A stretch of 62,262 nt of DNA, counting the filler, from Basidiobolus ranarum (lineage: Eukaryota): assembly GCA_040143965.1 (NCBI GenBank). It is 31 parts of 31 records of this genome, joined end to end, with 100 filler letters (N's around TTAATTAATTAA, not from the genome) between each part and the next. Parts side by side here need not be neighbours in the genome. Positions count along the whole stretch, not along the records: positions 20,171 to 22,084 come from JASJQH010004096.1; 30 more parts are not named here. One strand, given 5' to 3'. The translations under genes and the position numbers were made by a program. The notes beneath the pieces were generated by a model, which saw nothing but the letters and a program-made list of their open reading frames with translations, did no database searches and was not told the origin of the DNA. This document shows, in pieces, positions 707 through 50,231 of this stretch (its first letter is position 1; every line of letters begins with the position of its first letter).

Positions 707-1920
707 GTAGTAGTACTTCTGTTGAACAAGATTTTTACAGAGTGAGTTTGTAGTGATGTATATTGATTTTTTTAACTTAAGAGGAGTGTAACTAAGAAAT
801 TATTCAAAGCTTACATTTTTCACTGCCCTCTGAAGGATACTAATACTTAGTATACTTTGTTACTACTTGCCAATTCTGATGCCATACATATCTCTCATAT
901 CGAGATCAACTGATATCAAGATCAGATCCGAAATACATCACATTAATTAACTAAATAATTTTTAATTCAGATTGTCACATCAAACCGACCTAGCCTGTTA
1001 TAGTTGTAAAATGATCACTTGATTTTAATCATTATCTTGAGTTTACTAACCTCATCCATTAATCACCTTATCTATTAATCACCTCATCCAATGGGTAAAA
1101 TAGCAGCATGATTAATTAACTACACTCACAACGCTAGACGGGTATTTTAGTAACCACAATGTGTATACGTGCCTTAAACAGAAATAACCCAACAGTCTAT
1201 GTTCAAGAATTTTTGAACATGAGACACGAAGGAGCTGGTAGATGGTGTTTGCACTGATAAATTATGCAACATTGGCTTTATTGTTGTTGAAGGAGCATAT
1301 CATGTCATTCTTTATGACGGATTAAAGTAATTCGGCCCAGTATTTGATTCCATACCTAGAGTATTATTAAATAGAATATTTATTTGTGCTTTCGAATCAC
1401 TGCGATTTTAAACGAAGTAAATATGGGTTAAATGCGAGAGCATGAAGCTGAATATATGCGCATTTACTCAATAAGGAGTATTTAATTACAATTTCCAGTT
1501 CATATTATTCTAAAGACAATGTACCTGTGAGCCATTGCAATGGTATTAAATAAATCTCCATCATTTTTTAGCAGTGAAAGTCAATACTATAGTTCTGTTT
1601 TCCAATCCCCTGAAGAACTTACCTAGGGCTATCTTAACTTACGAAGGTTCTTATGACAATTATTCAGGGTACCAATGATGATTGGCTTAAAGAAAAGACT
1701 AGTCTATCTGTTACTGATTCACAAGGGGCTATTCCGAAGCTAGGGTACCATAAAGAAGATAGCATAGTTTCGGTGGTTTCCGTATAGTATGCAGTATATC
1801 AGATTACACTCCTTCCATCATCAGACGTTCTATAAATCATTTTGAATAAGGTCAAGTCTAGATACATCTATTCAAAGCCACGTTTAGGCCACGAAAAAAC
1901 TACTGAGTTTGTTTTCCAAA

Positions 1921-2020
1921 NNNNNNNNNNNNNNNNNNNNNNNNNNNNNNNNNNNNNNNNNNNNTTAATTAATTAANNNNNNNNNNNNNNNNNNNNNNNN
2001 NNNNNNNNNNNNNNNNNNNN
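1921..2020. other. Artificial contig linker (first of 30 identical 100-nt linkers, recurring about every 2.0 kb up to 60259-60358)
   Basis: 44 N + TTAATTAATTAA (stops in all six frames) + 44 N. Flanking segments shrink monotonically from 1920 to 1904 bp, i.e. length-sorted contigs were concatenated. Confidence 0.99.
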
Positions 2021-2286
2021 ACAAGGACCATTACAAAGACAGATGATGTAAGGATGATTAGGTGACCTTCCATGGAAGGTCTTGGTGGAAATACACTATG
2101 TGTGTGATGACATGATTGGTTAGGTTACATGGAATGTTCCAGAGAACATGACTTCCACATAAGTTAATCTGGACAAACTAACACAAGATTGCCGAGAAGA
2201 GATGGCACAGCAGACATGATGTCATAATCTAATAATAGAGGAGTTCTATTTGAAGTGAATCAGTATGCCAAGTTTGAATCATGACA
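2021..2286 (+). mobile_element. Partial LTR of family E (same family as the solo LTR at 45432-45960)
   Basis: Aligns by eye with 45695-45960 and ends ...GAATCATGACA versus ...GAATTGTGACA. Confidence 0.75.
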
Positions 2287-2380
2287 ACACCATCTCAGAA
2301 TCAGCTAACAATATTGATGGGCTATAACTAAAATACCACCCTTGCCTTGGAGGTGTTCTTTTTTCTTCAATATCCTTCTC

Positions 2381-3939
2381 ATGTTACAACACAGATGTTT
2401 AAAGAAGCCCTGCTATTATTGACACAAATTCTTGTGCTATGAAAGCCAGAGGCTTCATGGAAAAAATAATCACCAGCATGGTCACTGTACAAAGCCTGGT
2501 GAATATCAACAGTAATAAGTGCAAAAAATTGACTTTAGTGTTGACCACTGAGTCCACTCACTGTACTTTGCCTCAAAGTTTTGGTAATACTGCCAAAAGT
2601 CAAGATATCATGGAATTACCACCGTAAGATGACCAGAATGATGTAGGTAGAATGCAACTTTGGTCAAACCAGTAAGTCCAGGCAACTTTGAGGACTTATT
2701 CCTAGATGTTGATATTGGTTATTCCAGTACCAATGGAAGTATATCAGAAGTTGAACAAGAAGACAATGGTTTTGTTACAGACTCTTTCTTATCAGCAAAC
2801 AATAGTCCACTGATAACACTTACTAAGAAGGAAGCAGCTTTGATTATTGAGGAGTGGAGAGTTCAATCCAATCTCAGCAACCAGGTGTTTATTGATTTTC
2901 TTACACTTTTACCACAGTTGATTGGCAACTGTTGCTTGCCACAGACCTGGTCCAAGTGGAAAACACTTGTCAATTGTATGACTTATAATCCTTCAGTAAT
3001 TAAACTACCTTCATGTCCAAATGGTTGTTTGCCTTTCACCAGAGATCTGAAAACCGGAAGTCATGTACTGTTTGGACCAATTGGCAATCCCTGAATCAGG
3101 TAAATATTGTTCATATTTGGCTTATATATCTTTGATTCCCTATGTCATAGTTTTGATGAAATCACCCAAATACAGATTGTTGATTCAATACTGATGTATG
3201 CACCATAAACCTCTTGGTGTTACCAATATACTTGATGGATGTCACTGCCAGAATCTGAAAAGTCAAGGTTTCTTTGAGATCACATATGATCATGCATTTG
3301 CATTCACTCTGGATGATTCCTCACTAATCAAATATACCATTGGAAAGGCTTGCTGACCAATAATTTTAGTTAACTTAAATCTCCCTCTTTCTGAACAGTA
3401 TAAGAGTCATAATATGTTGATAATATCCATCATATTTAGACCTAAATTACCAGTGCTTATAGATAGCTTCTTGGAGCCTTTGATTGCAGAATTTGAATGG
3501 TTATTTAATGGGGTTCAGATGAGTGAATATCTTATTAAAGCTAATATCATATTTAGATCTAAATTACCAGTACTTATAGATAGATTCTTGGAGCCTTTGA
3601 TAGCCAAATTTGAACAGTTATCTAATGGGCTCAGATGGGTGAATATTTTATTAAAGCTAATATCATTGTATTTATTGGTGACACTCTGCTGTCAGTAAAC
3701 ATGGTGGTTTTTGCAGGCACAATACACTATCTTGCTGCAGATTTTGTCAAATCAATGGAGTTTACTCTAACAGGCATACATATTACTACTATCCAAATAC
3801 AACACTAAACTTCACAATTATACCATCAAGAGCCTGGTCAGATTTCAACATGATCACTGATATCAATTCCCAAATAGTCAGTCTAACATCAAACTAGGTA
3901 TTATTAGCCTTAAGCTTAAGATTATATTGCCAATGGGGA
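2381..3939 (+). mobile_element. CACTA/EnSpm (Tnp2/Transposase_21-type) transposase pseudogene
   Basis: Broken frames give CPNGCLxF, PIILVNLNLP..EQYK..NML, IDSFLEPLIAEFE, GD, GHN...CRFC, typical of Tnp2 transposases. Contains a 117-bp in-frame tandem duplication (3431 and 3548). Confidence 0.75.
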
Positions 3940-4223: not shown

Positions 4224-5096
4224 TTAGCTGGCCTGATCTGGCTCAATAAAATGGAACAAGTCTACTACTTTGCCTAACTTTGATTGAGGCCCACAAAATG
4301 ATTTTCCTCTATACTTTCCTGCTACAATGCTATATTTCTTTAGGAAACCAAAGCTATGTTCTACTCTGGCTCTAAAATGGGAAAAAATGTCATTATAAAG
4401 CTTTTGCCTCTCTGTGAGTATCCCTCCTCTGGGCCTCTTGTTAGCAGTGACACATCCTAGCCTTCTGCATTCTTCCCCAACATATGCCAAATCAGCCATA
4501 GTCTTCTCATATCTTACAAATGGTGCATGCCTCTCAACCCAAAGCCTTTTGTCATGGTGTCTCCCTGGATGTGGCCCACTAAACCAAATGATGTTTCCTT
4601 CCAAATCTGTCAAAGCCTGGAACTTTACACAGTGGGCTTTGTACTTGCCAGAATAGAATAGCTTTTGGTTGCTTTTGGGCCTGTTAATTCTGACTGGAAA
4701 TGTGTCAAGAATACTTCTGATATGAACTCTATTGGGAAATACTCCAGGAAATGGAAGGAAATTAGAGTCTCTAAATCTTTTGTCCCAGGCATCTTCAACA
4801 TCATTCATCACTGAAGCTAGATAATTCTCACTTACTTGAAGCCTGGTATGGAAGCTTCTCCCACTTTTGCTACCATTAATAGTGCACTGAAATCTGATTG
4901 GACAATAGTTTTTGTAGTAACAAAACAAATTGACTAGCTGCTTTCTGGTAGGTATTGGAGTATATGAGCCACAGTATTTCTCAAATATAGCCTCTAGGGT
5001 GGTGATAGGAAAGCCAGTAGTTGCTTTTGGATTAATGAGGAATGACCATTTAGAGTAGATGGAGAGCATGATATTAATCTTGTATTGAGCTGGCAC
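4224..5096 (-). mobile_element. PIF/Harbinger/IS5-like DDE transposase (DDE_Tnp_4 type); ORF open but C-terminus replaced at a junction near 4263
   Basis: Motifs ILDTFPVRINRP, YSGKYKAHCVKFQ, SGPHPGRHHD, MADLAY, YNDIFSHFRARVEHSFGFLK. Confidence 0.85.
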
Positions 5097-10091: not shown

Positions 10092-12008
10092 GAGCAGCAT
10101 ATTGCTGTAGCTCCAGTACAGCATTCTGAAGGTCTTGTATCATTGTTGAGTGACTTTCTTACTGTAGACTAGTTGCTCCAGAATGCTGCATTAATTGAAA
10201 TATTGTGGCTCATTGCTTGTCATGGCCTGAATAGCAACTTCATAGTTTTTACTTATGATTTCATACTAGTCATTGTGGTGTTCTGCCTGTGATTCCCTTG
10301 TTGTAATCATTCTTTCTAAATTTTGACAGAGGGTTGCTCAATAGTTGGCAATGCAACCATTTTGATAGTTGATTGTCTTGAGAGTGTTTCTGTTGCACTT
10401 TGCTCAGCTATTGATTTACTATGTAATTGGGTAATTACAGTCTCTTCACCTGCACTATTGCTGAAAAGGAACACATCTGTTAAATTGATCAATGGTTCAT
10501 CTTTACCTGCATGAGTCTTTGGCATTTTAATGCTTTCTAAAGTGGATAGTGTATCACCAGACTGCTCATCATTTAATTCCTCTGTTCCTACTAGTTTTTT
10601 CCTATTGTGCCATCAGGCTTTTGCTTGGAAGCTAATTTTAAGTTAGATTCTGAATAGTTTTGAATGGCTTTGCAATTTTCACATGGTAAACTTGGTGTAA
10701 TCAATTGCTTAGAAACAGCTTGAAATGAACCAAAATTGCCATCCATTACAGGAAATATCTTGTAAATCCTTGTATGACTCATCTGTGGAAGCATCTTAGA
10801 AACAGCTGATGCTATTAATGGGCAATATCAAAGATACCACCCTTACATTGGTGGTGTTCTTTTTTCTTGAATATCCTTCTCATGCCACAACATAAATTTC
10901 TAAAGAAGCCCTGCTATTATTGTCACCTATTGTTGTGCTATGAAAGCCAGAGGCTTCATAGAAAAATTGATCACAAGCATGGACACTATACAAACATCCT
11001 AGCTGCACAAAGCTAGGTGAGTATCAACAGTAACAAGTGCACAAAATTGACTTTAGTTTTGCCTACAGAATCCACTGGCTGTGCATTGCCTCAAAGTTCT
11101 GGTGGCACTACCAATAGTCAAGATACTGTTGAGTTACCACAGTTTATGACCAGGATGATGTATGTAGAAATGCAACCTTGGTCAAACCACTAAGTCCTGA
11201 CAACTTTGAGGACATGTTTCTACATGTTGACCTTGGTTATTCCAGTACTTATGGTAGTAAAGCAGAAGTTGAGGAAGAAGATGGTGGTCTTTTTATAGAC
11301 TCTTTGTTATTGGGAAGCATTAGTCTACTTATAGTACCTATAGTAAAGGAAGCGGCTTTGCTTATTGAAGAGTGGAGAGTTCAATTCAATCATTGCAACT
11401 AGGTGTTTATTGGTTTTCTTACACTTTTAACACAGTTGATTGGCAACTGTTGCTTGCCACAGAGCTGGTACAAGTAGAAAACACTTGTGAAATGTATGTC
11501 TTATAATCCTTCATTAATTGAAGTACTTTCATATCTATTTGTTGTTTGCTTTCAATATTAATTGGGAGACCTGAATCCATGAATTGTTTGCACACAATTG
11601 GCAATTACTGAGCCAGGTAAATATTACTCAAACTGATGATTTCTCATCTTGAAGTTTTGATAAAATCACTCAAATACAGGTTATTGCTCCATTACCAAAG
11701 TACTCACCATAATGCTGGTGGTATTATCAATATTCCTGATGTACCTGACCACCAGAATCTGAAAAGTCTTACTTACTGGTTTTTTTCCTGTTGTGCCTTC
11801 TGGCTTTTTCTTGGAAGCTAATTTTGATTTAGATTTTGAATAGTTTTTGAATGTCATTGAGATATTCCTTATAATCCTTGAGTAACTAAACTACCTTCAT
11901 GTCCAAATGGTTGTTTGGCTTACATCAGTGATCTGAAAAACCCAAAGTCATGTACTGTTTGCACACAATTGGTAATCAATGAATCAGGTAAATATTGTTC
12001 ATACTTGG
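10092..12008. mobile_element. CACTA-type element relic: ORF2 (-) and divergent transposase 5' part (+)
   Basis: Degenerate copies of 54345-55337 and 2381-3120. Confidence 0.75.
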
Positions 12009-16140: not shown

Positions 16141-16990
16141 CAAAGGTAGCTCATTTTACTCCCACAGATGTTCTGAACACAAACCCAGTGTTAGTTTTCT
16201 GTATTTCCACCAAAAAGTAAAAATGCTTTATTTCTGTACAATAAAAAATCATCTCACAAAGCTATTCACAACTCCACTTTTCTAAAGTTCCTCCAAACAG
16301 CCCAAAATTTCCCAATATAACTTTTACCCAATAAATCAACAAGTGAAAACCACCAATTGCTCTAATATTCAAGCCACTTCCAACAGGCTCCTGACTACTT
16401 TAACAGGTTATGAGCCCCATTGTAGTGGGGTAGCATTGCTACCCACTGGCAGGTTGCCTTATTTCCACTACAAGCTCATATCATTACTATTACACAATTT
16501 CTATTTGATTATCCATATTGGACTTACCCATATTTTCTAGCCAATCATATCACACCATTAGTATTATCCCCTATTATTTAATATTATTCAGTACTAACTC
16601 GCATTCGCCCTATTATTTTCTGGAAAATTTTACAATCTCCAGGAATATTCAACAAGATTATTGGAATATTTGACACTTGATTGAGTTTTAACCAATCAAA
16701 GCTTGGTTTTGCTGGAACATTCCATTACTTAGTCAAATATCACTTAACTGCATATTTGAATAATGTTAGAGTTAGCAATTCCATACTGAAAGTTTCAAAC
16801 TTGTCCAAATTGCCCCAGAGATAGCTCATTTTACTCCCACAGATGTTCTGAACACAACTCCAGTGTTAGTTTTATGTATTTCTACCAAAAGGTATAAATG
16901 CTTTATTTCTGGATAATATATAATTATCTTACAAAGCTATTCACAACTCCACTTCTCTAAAGTTCCTCCAAGCAGCCAATTTTTTCCCAT
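16141..16990 (+). mobile_element. Copia A-type LTR and PBS (16406-16417) with a gypsy LTR inserted at 16421, followed by another A-type LTR fragment
   Basis: ...TTTAACA GGTTATGAGCCC CAT TGTAGTGGGGTAGC...; the last part matches the gypsy LTR at 56350-56682. Confidence 0.75.
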
Positions 16991-18055
16991 AAGATTCAAG
17001 TAAATTAAAATATTGGCCAGCAAGCCTTTCCAACAGTATATTAGTTTAGTGAGAAACCATCCTGAGCCAATGCAAAGCGTGACCATTTGTGTTCTCAAAG
17101 AAACATTGACTTTTCAGATTCTGGAAGTGACATCCATCAAGTCTATTGGTGTTACCATAAGCTCTACAGTGAGTGCTTTGGTACCAGATCCATGATCTAT
17201 ATTTAGGTGATTTCATTGGAACTTTAAGATAGGGAATCAATGGTATGTATGCCAAATAAGAACAATATTTACCTAATTCAGTGATTGCAAATTGTGTGCA
17301 AACTGTACCTGACTTCAGCTTTTTCAGATCACCTGTGAAAGCCAAACAACCATTTGAACATGAAGGAAGTATAAATACTGAAGGATTATAAGTCATACAG
17401 TTGACAAGTGTTTTCCACTGGTACCAGGTATGTTCCAAGCAACAATTGCCAATCAACCATGGTAAAAGTGTGCAAAAATCAATAAACACCTGGTTGCTAA
17501 GATTGGATTGAACTCTTGGCTCCTCAATAATCAATGTTGTTCCCTTGACAGTAAGTATTATGTGTGGACTAATGATTGCCAATAACAAAGAGTCCATAAC
17601 AAAACCATTGTCTACTTCTTCAACTTCTGATATACTATTATTGGTACCGGAATTACCAAGGCCAACATCTAGCTGCAAGTTGTCAAAGTTGTCTCAACTT
17701 ACTGGTTTGACCAAAGTAGCCTTTCTACCTACAACATTCTGGTCATATAACTGGGGTAACTACACAGTATCTTGACTTTTTGCAGTGTTACCAAAACTTT
17801 GAGGCAAAGTTCAGTCAGTGAACTCAGTGGGCAAAACTAAATTTGATTTTGTGCAATTATTACTGTGGATATTCACTAGCCATTATGCAGATGGTAGCTT
17901 GGTACCATTACTGTGCTTGTGATTACTTTTCTATGAAGCCTCTGGCTTTCATAGCTCCAGAATTTGTGACAACAATACCAGGGCTTCTTTAAACATTTGT
18001 GCTGTGGCATGAGAAGGATGTTATAGAAAACAAAACTCCTCCTATGTATGGGTGG
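16991..18055 (-). mobile_element. CACTA-type transposase relic
   Basis: ORF 17046-17678 has CSNGCLAF, YLAYIPLIPYL and DGCHFQNL; homologous to 2381-3400. Confidence 0.8.
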
Positions 18056-18536
18056 NNNNNNNNNNNNNNNNNNNNNNNNNNNNNNNNNNNNNNNNNNNNT
18101 TAATTAATTAANNNNNNNNNNNNNNNNNNNNNNNNNNNNNNNNNNNNNNNNNNNNGAAATCATTACTAAACTTGATATATATCAGACCTTATGCTTTATT
18201 ACCCAAAACATTAACCAAAGATGTGAATCAACAATTGAAGAGTGGCTTAGATCCTCTCAAAATTAGCTGATACTATGAACGGGATAGTTTGGTACGGTTG
18301 ATTGTCGTTAATTTCAAAAATACCACTAGTTTAAAGAATCCCCTCTTCCTACCCCAACTGATTAGTATTGGATTGGCACGTGCATATTCATATTTTGTAT
18401 TTAGAGGATATAACACTAAAAGTACTTTCAAAAAAATACAAACGAAATTTACTCACTTTTCTGTATTCACCTAAAGTCAGGTAAACCTTTCTTTTCTTTT
18501 ATTTTGCGTGCAACTTTATTAAAGTGGCATAACAAG

Positions 18537-19770
18537 ATGCGTCAAACCAAAGTATTTGCTGGTTCTTCACATCCTGAGTTATCCAAACTTATTGTAGAGA
18601 AATTAGGCATCAAAGAAGCTCCAGTCACTTTAAAGAAGTTCTCCAACAAAGAAACGTGCATTGAAATAGGTGCTTCAGTACGAGATGAAGACGTATACAT
18701 AATTCAAAGTGGCTGTGGTACTGTTAACGACAATATTATGGAGTTGTTAATTCTCATTAACGCGTGTAAATTCGCGAGCGCTAAAAGAGTGACTGCTGTA
18801 TTACCATACTTTCCGTATTCCAAGCAGTCTAAGAAAAAATCCCGAGGGGCAATCGCTGCTAAATGTATTCCTCGTTTATATATGTATATATATATATATC
18901 ATTCGAACGTTAATTCATTCGAGTCCATTCTATTGTCTAGTACTTGCCAACATGTTGATTGTAGCTGGAGTTGACCACATTATCACTATGGATCTTCACG
19001 CCTCGCAAATGCAGGGGTTCTTCAACAGACCTGTGGATAACCTGTATTCAGAACCAAATGTCGCCAAGTGGATCATTGAAATGGAGCCAGATTATAGGAA
19101 TGGAGTAGTCGTTTCCAAAAATGCCGGTGGTGCAAAAAGGTTGACTTGAGGCGGTATTCTGTTGATTTGATTTCCTTTCTAACGTATTCTGTTGATAGAG
19201 TCACTTCTCTTGCTGACAGACTGAACATTGACTTTGCATTGATTCATTCGGATCCTAAGGTTCGCTTCCATCATTCTGGAAATAGCAAGCAAGTTGTTGA
19301 TGATGATGGCACCCAATACATTTCCAACAGAATGGTCTCACAAGAAGAGGAAGGAATTACGTTAGTTGGTGATGTCGAAGGGAAAATCGCGTTTCTATTG
19401 GTAAGCGAAAGTAATAAAACCCACATTAATATTTGTCTTCGATATTCATTTCCGGTGTATCCAGGATGACATGATCGATGGCTCCAAGACATTCATTAAG
19501 GCAGCGGAGCATTTGTACAAAAGATGTAGAGCGATTCGTGTCTATGTTGTGGCAACTCACGGTCTACTATCTGGTGATTCGTTGAGAGAGCTAGAGGAAT
19601 GTTCCAGTATTTACCAAATAGTAGTCACGAATACCATCGCCATACCTGAATCTAAACGCGTAAATCTTACCAAGCTGCGGATCATCGATATCTCGGGAAC
19701 ATTAGCGGAAGCGATTCGAAGAACACACAATGGAGAATCCATTTCTTATCTTTTTAATACAGCTTTGTAA
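18537..19770 (+). CDS. PRS1: Ribose-phosphate pyrophosphokinase, fungal Prs1 type. Exons 18537-18864, 18941-19139, 19199-19400, 19465-19770
   Basis: Three GT-AG introns (76, 59, 64 nt) join the ORF pieces to give [63 protein letters not shown] and YSKQ..K.RGAI are Prs1-like signatures. Confidence 0.93.
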
Positions 19771-20303
19771 GCAAAGGTCGTTTCACGAATACATGTTTGA
19801 TATTGAGTACTTAAACTATTTGTATAAATAATCTTACATGCTGAACTACAAGTAAATAAAATCATCCTTGTTCAATCCATCCACTCCCAAATCCACAATT
19901 AGCCCATCTTTAGACCTTTGTGGGGGAAAGTTCCAATCACAAATAGCTCGAATATGAGATTGAGTTTTAATGTCCTTTATTTTGAAAAAGAGATTGAGCG
20001 TGAGTATGTTAGATCATGAACTCGAATCAAATTCAAAGAAATGCCAATTTAATGTATCGTTAATGTATCGNNNNNNNNNNNNNNNNNNNNNNNNNNNNNN
20101 NNNNNNNNNNNNNNTTAATTAATTAANNNNNNNNNNNNNNNNNNNNNNNNNNNNNNNNNNNNNNNNNNNNTCCAGACTTGATTATATCTTTTTTCTAATC
20201 TTGATTATCCTTTTAAAATACCCCAACTTGATTATATCTATCCCAAACCTCCCCCCCCCACTCTATCCTTGAAATTATACCCTAATCATCTCACATCCCC
20301 AAT

Positions 20304-20984
20304 TTAAGGATACCATACAATCGGCAACACCCCCATCTCGTATACTAACATCTCATTCGCCCTTATAAATATATTACTCCCCTCCAACCCTTTCCCCGAC
20401 ACATTCTTCCCCCCCACATGAAATACTTTTATTAAATACTTCGACCCAACGCAATCCGAAAAATTTACCGCATCCTTCCCCATTAATATCGTTACCATCT
20501 TCCCACCCCTCCGTGAATATATATATCCCAACAACTTCCTCGTAAACTCTTCCCATAATACTCTATGGTTCGCCAAAAACTTATCACAGTTAACCCCCAC
20601 CGTAAATGCAACACTTATCAAAAATACCCCCTGTGATATCCACTGCTTACACATCTCTCTCGGTTCCGGCTCTTCCACCCCATACTCCCTCCCTACCTCT
20701 TTCGCAATTAATACCGTGTCTAATGGACTCTTTATGCACCCCACCGACGGCATTAACGCCACCCCCGACGCAAACGCTACTCTCGTTATACTGCACTCCT
20801 TATCATCTGGCGCATCGCTTAATATTACCACTTTTATCTCGTCCGGCCCCATCAGTCTCAACATCCTAAATACGTCCCTCTTCTTCGGTAATACTTCCAA
20901 ATTTGACTCCTTTAACGTCTTTGCTATCCTTGCCAATATATCCCGATTCTTCTCGAAAAACTCTTCCCATCCCTTAATCATCAT
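20304..20984 (-). CDS. Uracil-DNA glycosylase family-1 fold protein with degenerate active site, probably viral
   Basis: Scaffold motifs retained (P..DVF, IKVVIL, AF, W.SQGVFL, NH..LWEEFT, GSNIF..AN..L, PIVW), but GQDPY is SDAPD, LLLN is FLIS and HPSPLS is HVGGKN. No introns. Confidence 0.8.
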   Translation of the reverse strand: MMIKGWEEFFEKNRDILARIAKTLKESNLEVLPKKRDVFRMLRLMGPDEIKVVILSDAPDDKECSITRVAFASGVALMPSVGCIKSPLDTVLIAKEVGREYGVEEPEPREMCKQWISQGVFLISVAFTVGVNCDKFLANHRVLWEEFTRKLLGYIYSRRGGKMVTILMGKDAVNFSDCVGSKYLIKVFHVGGKNVSGKGLEGSNIFIRANEMLVYEMGVLPIVWYP

Positions 20985-21348
20985 GAACTTAACTCCTACG
21001 CCAATTCCCCCTCAAACTTCACCCAAAAAAGATCTCTCTGTTGAAGATACCTATACAAAACTTTACGTCCAACAACTTATAGATAACAATCAAACCGATG
21101 TCCTCGTCCAACTCGGTATTATCTCCAACTCCGAAACAAACAAACCTCTCCCCTATATATTAAATTCTATCAAAAAGTTTTTTGACACTAATAAACCCGA
21201 ACAACCCACCCCTGACCAAAATAACGCCACCTGCAAATATTGCGGCCATAACAACGTCCTCGTCCGAGAATATCAACTCCGCTCAGCCGACGAAGGAAGT
21301 AATTTAGTCCATGAATGTATGAACTGCCATAAAAGTTGGACCGTATAA
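20983..21348 (+). CDS. TFIIS / RNA polymerase subunit M (Rpa12/Rpc11/Rpo30-like) C-terminal zinc-ribbon protein, 121 aa, probably viral
   Basis: CKYC-x(9)-QLRSADEG-x(6)-CMNC-HKSW. The likely start is the ATG at 20983; the upstream part of the 210-aa ORF is antisense to the UDG gene. Confidence 0.85.
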   Translation: MNLTPTPIPPQTSPKKDLSVEDTYTKLYVQQLIDNNQTDVLVQLGIISNSETNKPLPYILNSIKKFFDTNKPEQPTPDQNNATCKYCGHNNVLVREYQLRSADEGSNLVHECMNCHKSWTV

Positions 21349-21423
21349 ATTATCGAATCTTTTCCCCTTTTTAAAAATTCAACCTTAATACTACACTTCT
21401 GCACCAATTCCTATTTCTTCACA

Positions 21424-22084
21424 ATGTCGGGATTTGTAGCCGAAAGTTCTGTCTCCTACGACCTATATAGTCTATGGATGGACAAAGTCGAACTTTTGAC
21501 CCAAGTCTATTATGACGCCGTCTCCGATGTTGTTGGTTCTATCCTTCCCGATTCCAAGAAATGTTTTGTCTATGAAGATGAAGACTGGATCGTTCTCTTC
21601 TTCCCCTTAATCCCCCATAACGGCTTCGTAATGGCTAACCTCTTACAACGTTTCGAACATGACGATGAAACTTTTATCCACAAAATTATTCTTGAAGACC
21701 TCTTAGATGAATACGGTGATCTTCTCCCAGTCGCAGTACTCCCTGACGAAAACTTATCCACTTTCTTATCTGAATATCTCAACGTTTCCGTATACCAAGA
21801 TTTCTGTCTTGATGACGTTACCTTGGAAGATCTCTTTCACCTTCATATCATCCCTCCTCCCACTACCGATTTCCCTCTCCAAAAAATCCCATTGTACCCC
21901 ATCCTGGAACAACAAAATGTCGACCGGTACATATTAGGTTACGTTATGTTCTTAGATGTTCTCCCCGATTCTCACCCACAAATTAACACGCTTAAAGGTA
22001 TGATTAAACATCTAGTCGCCAAATCTGGTCACCTTGAACCTATTTATGAACAAGATGGTATCCGGTCTATCGACTGCACCAGAT
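21424..22084 (+). CDS. Acidic hypothetical protein, 3'-truncated by the contig end, probably viral
   Basis: Uninterrupted 220-codon ORF starting 75 bp after the TFIIS-like stop. About 37 D/E versus 12 K/R by hand count. No recognised motif. Confidence 0.75.
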
Positions 22085-49781: not shown

Positions 49782-50231
49782 ATGTCCGCAACTCTTCCTC
49801 GCAAAGCTCTCCTTGCCATCACCAGTTACAATGGTGCATTCTATGCCGATGGTAGCAAGACTGGACTTTTCTATACTGAAGCACTTCATCCCTATGAGGC
49901 ACTTGTCAATGCTGGCTTTGAAGTAGATCTTGCTTCTGAGACTGGTCAATATGGAATTGATGGACACTCTTTAGCCAAGGATTTTCTTACCGAAGATGAC
50001 GAGAAGGTGTTAAATGATCCTAATCATGAATTCAATGTAAAGCTCAACTCACAGCTTCACAAGGCTTCTGATCTCAATCCTGCTGACTATGGATTATTCT
50101 TTGCCTCAGCCGGACATGCAACTCTATGGGATTACCCCACAGCTCGCGGTTTACAGCATATTGCTGAGGATATTTACAAGCGTGGAGGTGTTGTCTCTGC
50201 CGTATGTCACGGACCCGCCATATTGCCTGGG
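49782..50231 (+). CDS. HSP31: DJ-1/PfpI family Hsp31-type glutathione-independent glyoxalase, 3'-truncated
   Basis: [26 protein letters not shown], nucleophile elbow SAVCHGP. Confidence 0.9.

Follow-up and report, generated by a model that had tools for sequence, protein, structure and literature searches.

A uracil-DNA glycosylase fold that has lost its catalytic and uracil-pocket residues, encoded on a giant-virus-like contig of the fungus Basidiobolus ranarum

To our knowledge, poxvirus D4 is the only textbook example of a repair glycosylase that has become a processivity subunit of a polymerase; its enzyme activity is still present. In vaccinia virus its gene, D4R, lies next to D5R. The vaccinia family-1 uracil-DNA glycosylase (UDG; UNG for this family) is required for DNA replication, whereas its catalytic site is not, as described in PMC2630940; for the vUNG of murine herpesvirus 68 (MHV68), binding to the replication machinery has been described as independent of the catalytic residues. 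The present analysis concerns a gene of Basidiobolus ranarum at positions 20304-20984 of a window (the whole stretch of DNA analysed, 62,262 bases) whose predicted protein retains the UNG fold while the catalytic and uracil-pocket residues are lost. By analogy with D4, the protein may be a non-catalytic replication accessory with a UDG fold, retained by selection in a fungal giant virus that is probably endogenised, a reading to which we give slightly less than an even chance. The gene and the motifs concerned are as follows.

20304-20984, minus strand: UDG-fold pseudo-enzyme gene, 226 amino acids (aa), full length, ATG start.
20802-20819, minus strand: SDAPDD (residues 56-61) for the water-activating loop GQ(D/S)PYP; catalytic Asp replaced by Ala58 and gate Tyr by Asp60.
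20754-20756, minus strand: Leu77 at the uracil-stacking Phe (GxAF to GVAL), from the alignment with the closest relatives.
20613-20630, minus strand: GVFLIS (residues 119-124; LLLN to FLIS), uracil-reading Asn replaced by Ser124.
20403-20420, minus strand: HVGGKN (residues 189-194) for HPSPLS (cellular) or HPxxR (clade, poxvirus); His189 kept, Lys193 at the Leu/Arg position.

Motifs were compared with those of E. coli UNG given in Table 4 of PMC1936997 (62-GQDPYH-67, 120-LLLN-123 and 187-HPSPLSAHR-195; active-site residues D64, Y66, F77, N123, H187 and L191), and the replacements were read from alignments and checked at the codons. His189 alone survives of the UNG active-site residues; the Asp, Tyr, Phe, Asn and Leu are all changed, and the Ser residues of the DNA-pinching loops (the Pro-rich loop and the Gly-Ser loop) are absent. 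The first-pass annotation of this DNA had listed the losses GQDPY to SDAPD, LLLN to FLIS and HPSPLS to HVGGKN, with only the His left, and both the alignments and the codons agree with it.

The frame was examined by profile searches, in which residues 4-224 were aligned to positions 7-220 of the 225-position NCBIfam profile PRK05254/ung (E 3.8e-20), and both termini agreed with relatives, M1, W6 and W224 being conserved columns. With this full-length homology and the ATG start, the intact 226-aa family-1 UNG-type frame reported earlier is borne out. The protein scored below every curated cutoff (72.7 bits against 162 for the best of five NCBIfam models, and 15.3 bits against a gathering score of 24.3 for Pfam UDG). 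In a phmmer search against PDB it matched Coxiella UNG (3tr7; 1.1e-10) and E. coli UNG (4.5e-10), and poxvirus D4 was not among the PDB matches of the single sequence at E values up to 10. At the third-position composition of the open reading frame (ORF) itself a stop is expected in 6.4% of codons and 226 open codons would arise by chance with a probability of about 3e-7, so the ORF is more than chance.

An AlphaFold2 model built on a 24-sequence alignment had a mean predicted local distance difference test score (pLDDT) of 94.4 and a predicted template modelling score of 0.91, with residues 191-200 as the only low-confidence block (pLDDT 68). In Foldseek comparisons the model was superposed on bacterial, human and mimivirus UNG with template modelling (TM) scores of 0.76-0.85, and the best matches in the viral library were the UDGs of Solivirus, an entomopoxvirus, Pithovirus and Marseillevirus. 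Structure prediction and superposition thus uphold the earlier claim of a retained fold. Identity to cellular UNGs is about 21-26%, and scaffold columns are kept, for example P59, W115, Q118-F121, H140, W144 and G169.

Relatives were sought by several routes. An exhaustive HMMER search yielded 1606 UNG-family proteins, only two of which matched at E <1e-30, with 37-39% identity to the query; with this as the best identity, the protein has no close relative among the 15 billion sequences. A word-indexed homologue search with the protein returned zero matches, the protein itself included, so the UDG ORF is unannotated in the protein collection. A single-protein pattern scan of viral contigs gave no match and an ESM Atlas search returned generic viral UDG clusters only; alignment-based scans succeeded, and 134 virus-like loci were fetched by scanning viral and metagenome contigs with the alignment of the nearest UDG matches. 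A maximum-likelihood tree built from 54 sequences placed the query inside a clade of 34 members (Shimodaira-Hasegawa-like approximate likelihood ratio test, 94), in which the active-site columns are occupied as follows.

Catalytic Asp column (query residue 58): Ser 21, Asp 6, Glu 4, Asn 1, Tyr 1, Ala 1 (the query).
Gate Tyr column (query residue 60): Tyr 33, Asp 1 (the query).
Stacking Phe column (query residue 77): Phe 29, Leu 3, Met 1, Ile 1.
Uracil-reading Asn column (query residue 124): Asn 33, Ser 1 (the query).
Catalytic His column (query residue 189): His 32, Phe 1, Asp 1.
Loop Leu position (query residue 193): Arg 31, Lys 2, Asp 1.

The catalytic Asp is absent in 28/34 clade members, and 21/34 read GQSPY; in the non-clade rows of the same alignment Asp stands at this position in 20/26. 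The clade loop, HP(V/A)(A/S)R (HPxxR in 31/34), is of the vaccinia D4 type, which in Table 4 of PMC1936997 reads 179-GYHPAARDR-187, with Arg185 at the Leu position. In the published alignment of the moss UDG (Supplementary Data 14 of PMC4083422), the catalytic position of 12 scaffold copies is occupied by Glu (10), Lys (1) or a gap (1), these copies having GQEPY or a degenerate form of it and keeping an HPSPFS-type loop. Among the 34 members, the B. ranarum protein is the only one in which Tyr and Asn are both lost. As read from these alignments, the clade as a whole is marked by loss of the catalytic Asp, and the B. ranarum protein is its most extreme member. Literature searches outside the subscription journals found neither the GQSPY motif in a UDG context nor anything relevant on uracil-DNA glycosylase, Nucleocytoviricota and processivity together, and in the published accounts of the moss and fungal elements consulted here the UDG gene is given simply as a repair enzyme (text of PMC4083422).

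Signs of selection or decay were then compared. The end branch of the query is 0.76 changes per site long, against 0.68-0.81 for its nearest kin and a median of 0.55. Of 39 columns conserved in at least 80% of 32 clade members, 28 are kept in the query; the 11 changed columns comprise 8 of the 12 within published motif regions or at the stacking Phe and 3 of the 27 elsewhere (Fisher one-sided p 0.0009, with motif regions that came from a published table but were fixed after the changes had been seen). Third codon positions of the UDG gene contain 5% C and 49% G, and Gly and Pro make up 8.4% and 4.0% of the protein, where 26% and 0.3% would be expected were every position at the third-position composition. 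No stop or frameshift occurs in the 226 codons, both neighbouring genes are intact, and the adjacent zinc-ribbon gene keeps G-containing functional codons on the G-starved strand. From the normal branch, the motif-clustered changes, the constrained composition and the intact neighbours, the UDG gene looks selected for its scaffold rather than freely decaying.

The genomic setting was delimited from the make-up of the window, which consists of 31 unrelated contigs of 1904-1920 bp, sorted by size (1920 down to 1904) and joined by linkers (N44-TTAATTAATTAA-N44) that contain stops in all six frames. Neighbourhood reasoning across any linker is therefore invalid, and the genomic context of the UDG gene is 20171-22084 alone. 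The first-pass annotation had referred to a neighbouring ORF; such context fails across the linkers, which separate independent contigs, and stands only for the two genes that share the UDG contig. The contig and its other features are as follows.

20171-22084, whole contig: 1914 bp, GC 41.6%, GC skew -0.46; carries the UDG gene and is its sole genuine context.
20983-21348, plus strand: TFIIS-type zinc-ribbon protein, 121 aa; Pfam Zn_ribbon_TFIIS 1.7e-11 at the C-terminus, and orthologue alignment.
21424-22084, plus strand: start of a D5-like helicase (220 codons), truncated where the contig ends; orthologues are 655-686 aa long with D5_N and/or DUF5906.
20176-20239, plus strand: 14-nt direct repeat ACTTGATTATATCT, two exact copies 50 nt apart, within the G-poor sequence 3' of the UDG gene.

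The gene content of the contig is the UDG gene, the TFIIS-type gene and the start of the D5-like gene only, with no A20 or PolB gene on it and no host flank. The UDG and TFIIS-type genes are arranged head to head with their ATGs overlapping by 2 bases (20982-20985), and in the related locus L066 the ATG-started ORFs of the pair overlap by 65 nt (4736-4800); with overlapping 5' ends, the promoter of each gene must lie within the other. The zinc-ribbon protein retains its four Cys and the RSADEG acidic loop. The D5-like ORF begins 75 bases past the TFIIS-type gene and 440 nt from the UDG start, the TFIIS-type gene lying between, and it continues on a second B. ranarum contig of 1070 bp (P0002). 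Both D5 pieces were mapped by tblastn to the N-terminal third of the 655-686-aa proteins of related loci that contain D5_N and DUF5906 (superfamily 3 (SF3) helicase), and this placement identifies the third ORF as the predicted start of a D5-like replicative helicase.

The same module recurs in the related loci. Among the 15 loci with the best UDG match, a TFIIS-type gene was found in 11 (10 by tblastn, and L066 by Pfam) and a D5-like gene in 6; several of the remaining loci are just 1-5 kb long, so that the absence of a gene there says little. Three loci (L056, L060 and L066) have exactly the B. ranarum order, with the UDG gene head to head with the zinc-ribbon gene and then D5, and three more (L001, L002 and L062) have the head-to-head UDG/TFIIS pair. 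Other genes encoded among the loci include a split Rpb1 (L002, L055, L056, L064 and L066), Rpb2 (L064 and L066), Rpb5 (L002 and L059), a helicase C-terminal domain (L002, L056 and L064, SNF2-related in L064), a capping/methyltransferase protein (L056), an XPG/FEN1-type nuclease (L056 and L059), PolB (L055 and L066) and ribonucleotide reductase. Named relatives of the L056 D5 protein occur in two fungal genomes, those of Ramaria rubella and Linnemannia elongata. Fundsalphaviruses are described in PMC7017919 as Pithovirus-related endogenous elements of 14 fungal species, Basidiobolus meristosporus and B. heterosporus among them, with a gene set of D5, SNF2 helicase, methyltransferase, Rpb2, Rpb5, split Rpb1 and PolB, and the gene list of the regions of Physcomitrella patens that resemble nucleocytoplasmic large DNA viruses (NCLDV) includes UDG, TFIIS and D5 (Table 1 of PMC4083422). 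The gene set of the syntenic soil metagenome loci matches both, as far as they are set out in these two sources. We conclude, on gene order and content, that the contig would be a piece of a fundsalphavirus-type NCLDV element, in a third Basidiobolus species, and a giant-virus element integrated in the fungal genome is its most likely state.

Further observations were made on the contig, its neighbours and the rest of the window. No other pieces of the same element were found in the window, since only 2 of 108 stop-to-stop frames of at least 70 aa matched the 134 fetched loci, both on 20171-22084; the other 30 pieces carry intron-bearing fungal genes and transposon fragments (phosphoribosyl pyrophosphate synthetase, copia/gypsy integrase and reverse transcriptase, DDE transposase), and on one of these unrelated contigs an ORF at 49782-50231 combines a DJ-1/PfpI domain with a Latrotoxin_C match below threshold (22.9 bits against 25). 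The public annotation of the UDG contig holds a D5 fragment only, entered as a hypothetical protein (170 aa, with an ending unlike that of the open frame, probably from a predicted intron). In this lineage the D5-like proteins are short (about 640-690 aa; L056 7691-9658, L060 2784-4796 and L066 2371-4431), with D5_N and SF3-helicase domains and a poorly conserved N-terminal domain of about 200 aa that has no Pfam primase match; more distant D5 relatives of 880-980 aa have primase-type domains (PF23162 and PF08707). A 277-aa family of unknown function is encoded no more than a few kb from the UDG gene in 10 loci (L002 at 10591-11424, L001, L055, L056, L059-L062, L064 and L068), in varying position, immediately upstream of that gene in L061, L064 and L068, and it is not on the B. 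ranarum contig. The 92.7-kb metagenome relative L055 carries inteins in a helicase (Hom_end_hint and Hom_end) and in PolB (Intein_splicing), at 1267-3675 and 16150-19650. Two candidates were considered and rejected. A plus-strand ORF antisense to the UDG gene (20716-21348; stop to stop from 20422) was dismissed as an overlapping gene because its tblastn match to L062 spans the UDG antisense without a continuous ORF in L062; the match was read as antisense similarity together with the real zinc-ribbon gene, and a G-poor strand can in any case be expected to contain long ORFs. An A20-like partner encoded just downstream of the UDG gene was likewise discarded; the downstream ORFs of L056, L066 and L055 are mutually unrelated.

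Base composition sets the contig apart, its GC skew of -0.46 comparing with -0.20 to +0.12 on the other 30 contigs of the window. Plus-strand G makes up 4-7% of the third codon positions of all three genes, whichever their orientation, and 7 of the 208 bases in the two non-coding stretches; as the depletion is irrespective of gene orientation, the bias is one of the strand and not of transcription. Comparable skew was not found in the related loci (-0.13 to +0.23). Plain cytosine deamination (C to T) was rejected as its cause, the C-poor strand being G-rich and not T-rich (T at third positions 19%), as was a deaminase-type context signature, since among the dinucleotide ratios only AG (0.56) and GC (0.58) departed and no clear motif emerged. 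A wider proposal may be put forward as a speculation that we hold to be distinctly improbable: throughout the fungus and moss giant-virus lineage the UNG fold would be a non-catalytic replisome part (Asp to Ser or Glu), uracil recognition would have been abolished in the B. ranarum virus, and the skew would be the footprint of asymmetric replication without repair of deaminated bases on the exposed strand. If true, it would provide a natural experiment tying the loss of viral base-excision repair to genome composition.

The interpretation that we put forward is as follows. The gene would derive from a giant-virus-like element of B. ranarum (Nucleocytoviricota, 'fundsalphavirus'-type, Pithovirus-related), and its UNG-fold protein would be unable to activate the catalytic water, to hold uracil or to push the base from the helix. 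The fold would be kept by selection as a scaffold, and the protein would act as a catalysis-independent accessory at the viral replication fork, contacting DNA and/or replisome proteins. The clade as a whole would first have given up the catalytic Asp with the uracil pocket kept, and the B. ranarum member would then have given up the pocket too. The replisome role is proposed because of the analogy with vaccinia D4 and with herpesvirus UNGs that bind replication factors. The first-pass annotation had proposed that the fold was repurposed; of this, the kept fold, the lost chemistry and the signs of selection on the scaffold stand, and the replication role itself is proposed by analogy. Its appeal to D4 likewise stands in part, for the viral gene, the D5-like neighbour and the clade HPxxR loop with its Arg, and does not extend to sequence, in which the clade is nearer to cellular UNG than to D4/E4.

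Several points weigh against the accessory role. A profile of the clade matched bacterial/cellular UNG at E 3e-37, far nearer than the poxvirus D4/E4 chains (3e-8 to 3e-7, about 4e-8), so that on profile scores the likeness to D4 is one of loop type and gene neighbourhood and not of close kinship. The processivity role of D4 relies on DNA scanning, and the DNA-contact loops are altered in the B. ranarum protein. No A20 homologue was identified among the ORFs downstream of the UDG gene in L056, L066 and L055, where it was sought. The 33 other clade members keep Tyr and Asn, hence the function of the clade seems to need the pocket, and loss of the pocket may be loss of function rather than a new role. 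Most of the motif replacements follow the mutation bias of the strand, on which the sense strand gains G and loses C (Q to D, GAT; Y to D, GAT; N to S, AGT; V/A to G, GGG; P to V, GTG), and a lone pocket loss along this bias might just as well mark the onset of decay after endogenisation. The fundsalphavirus elements of fungi are endogenous, some with stops and frameshifts, in Basidiobolus species as described in PMC7017919, and the moss NCLDV-like elements are described as silent in PMC4083422; given such endogenous or silent elements, the contig may never be expressed in the fungus.

These points lead directly to the alternative of an early pseudogene, in which the UDG function was lost after integration and the gene is drifting with its ORF not yet broken; we regard it as rather unlikely. 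It would account for the loss of Tyr and Asn in this protein alone among 34 clade members, for the run of nearly all motif replacements with the strand bias and for the absence of the UDG ORF from the predicted proteins of the collection, where the adjoining D5 fragment is present, and it has a precedent in the stops and frameshifts of endogenous fundsalphavirus elements of Basidiobolus species (PMC7017919, in the text on these elements). It agrees poorly with 226 codons free of stops and frameshifts where stops would make up about 6.4% of random codons, with a branch no longer than those of kin, with changes clustered in the motifs and not spread (p 0.0009, for regions fixed afterwards), with an amino-acid composition far from the neutral expectation while silent sites are saturated, and with two adjoining genes that are intact and keep their functional motifs.

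Retained catalysis of another kind was also considered. Changes at Tyr147 or Asn204 of human UNG alter base preference, and the B. ranarum protein might still be a glycosylase in which a relocated acid (Asp57, Asp60 or Asp61 of SDAPDD) serves a pocket widened by Tyr to Asp, Phe to Leu and Asn to Ser, acting on a base other than uracil. Three Asp residues surround the lost catalytic position, His189 is kept, and the fold is preserved together with the residues around the pocket strand (QGVF); against this, the remaining five active-site residues (Asp, Tyr, Phe, Asn and Leu) have changed together, the DNA-pinching loops lack their Ser residues and the relatives, mostly with Ser for Asp, offer no precedent for a moved Asp, which makes such an enzyme improbable. 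A decoy or sponge, that is, a UNG look-alike that titrates a UNG-binding host factor (an inhibitor, a restriction factor or a repair partner), has a single point in its favour, the surface fold kept with the chemistry lost. No candidate ligand is known, identity to cellular UNGs is only about 21-26%, and the conserved placement among replication and transcription genes points to a viral replication factory rather than host-factor mimicry; we consider this reading highly improbable.

A viral UNG with a catalysis-independent role is already known; the B. ranarum protein is new in being naturally inactive, in belonging to a fungal giant-virus-like element and in its place at the far end of a mostly Asp-less clade. 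The analysis adds a naturally inactive UNG-fold protein and a giant-virus UNG clade in which 28/34 members lack the catalytic Asp, beside a D5 helicase gene. If these proteins are indeed replisome parts, the D4-type solution would be older, or have been reinvented more often, than thought, and could dispense with repair chemistry. A giant-virus-like element with very unusual strand composition is also flagged in a third Basidiobolus species.

Compared with canonical UNGs (E. coli Ung, human UNG and Coxiella UNG, 3tr7), the B. ranarum protein has full-length homology, the fold, the scaffold columns and His189 in common, and differs in GQDPYH to SDAPDD, LLLN to FLIS, HPSPLS to HVGGKN and the stacking Phe to Leu. 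The fundsalphavirus-type and moss UDGs (L056, L060, L066, L001, L002 and P. patens) have the same gene module and mostly lack the catalytic Asp; these proteins keep Tyr and Asn, which the query has lost, as well as His and mostly Phe, and their contigs have no comparable skew. The herpesvirus UNGs (UL114 of human cytomegalovirus, with ppUL44, and vUNG of MHV68) provide the parallel of a viral UNG as a replisome-associated protein, as described in PMC1185570, a role that the B. ranarum protein would share; they are described as active glycosylases with intact motifs. With D4 of vaccinia virus (E4 of mpox virus), the B. ranarum protein has in common a viral family-1 UNG fold and a UDG gene near a D5-like helicase gene, and neither protein has the Ser of the Pro-rich loop or that of the Gly-Ser loop (Table 4 of PMC1936997). 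The HPAAR-type loop of D4 in the same table, with Arg at the Leu position, is shared by the clade, whereas the query itself reads HVGGK. In D4 the Asp, Tyr, Phe, Asn and His are all present and the enzyme is active, while the B. ranarum protein keeps the His only; a TFIIS-type gene stands between the UDG and D5 genes in B. ranarum, and sequence kinship with D4 is weak.

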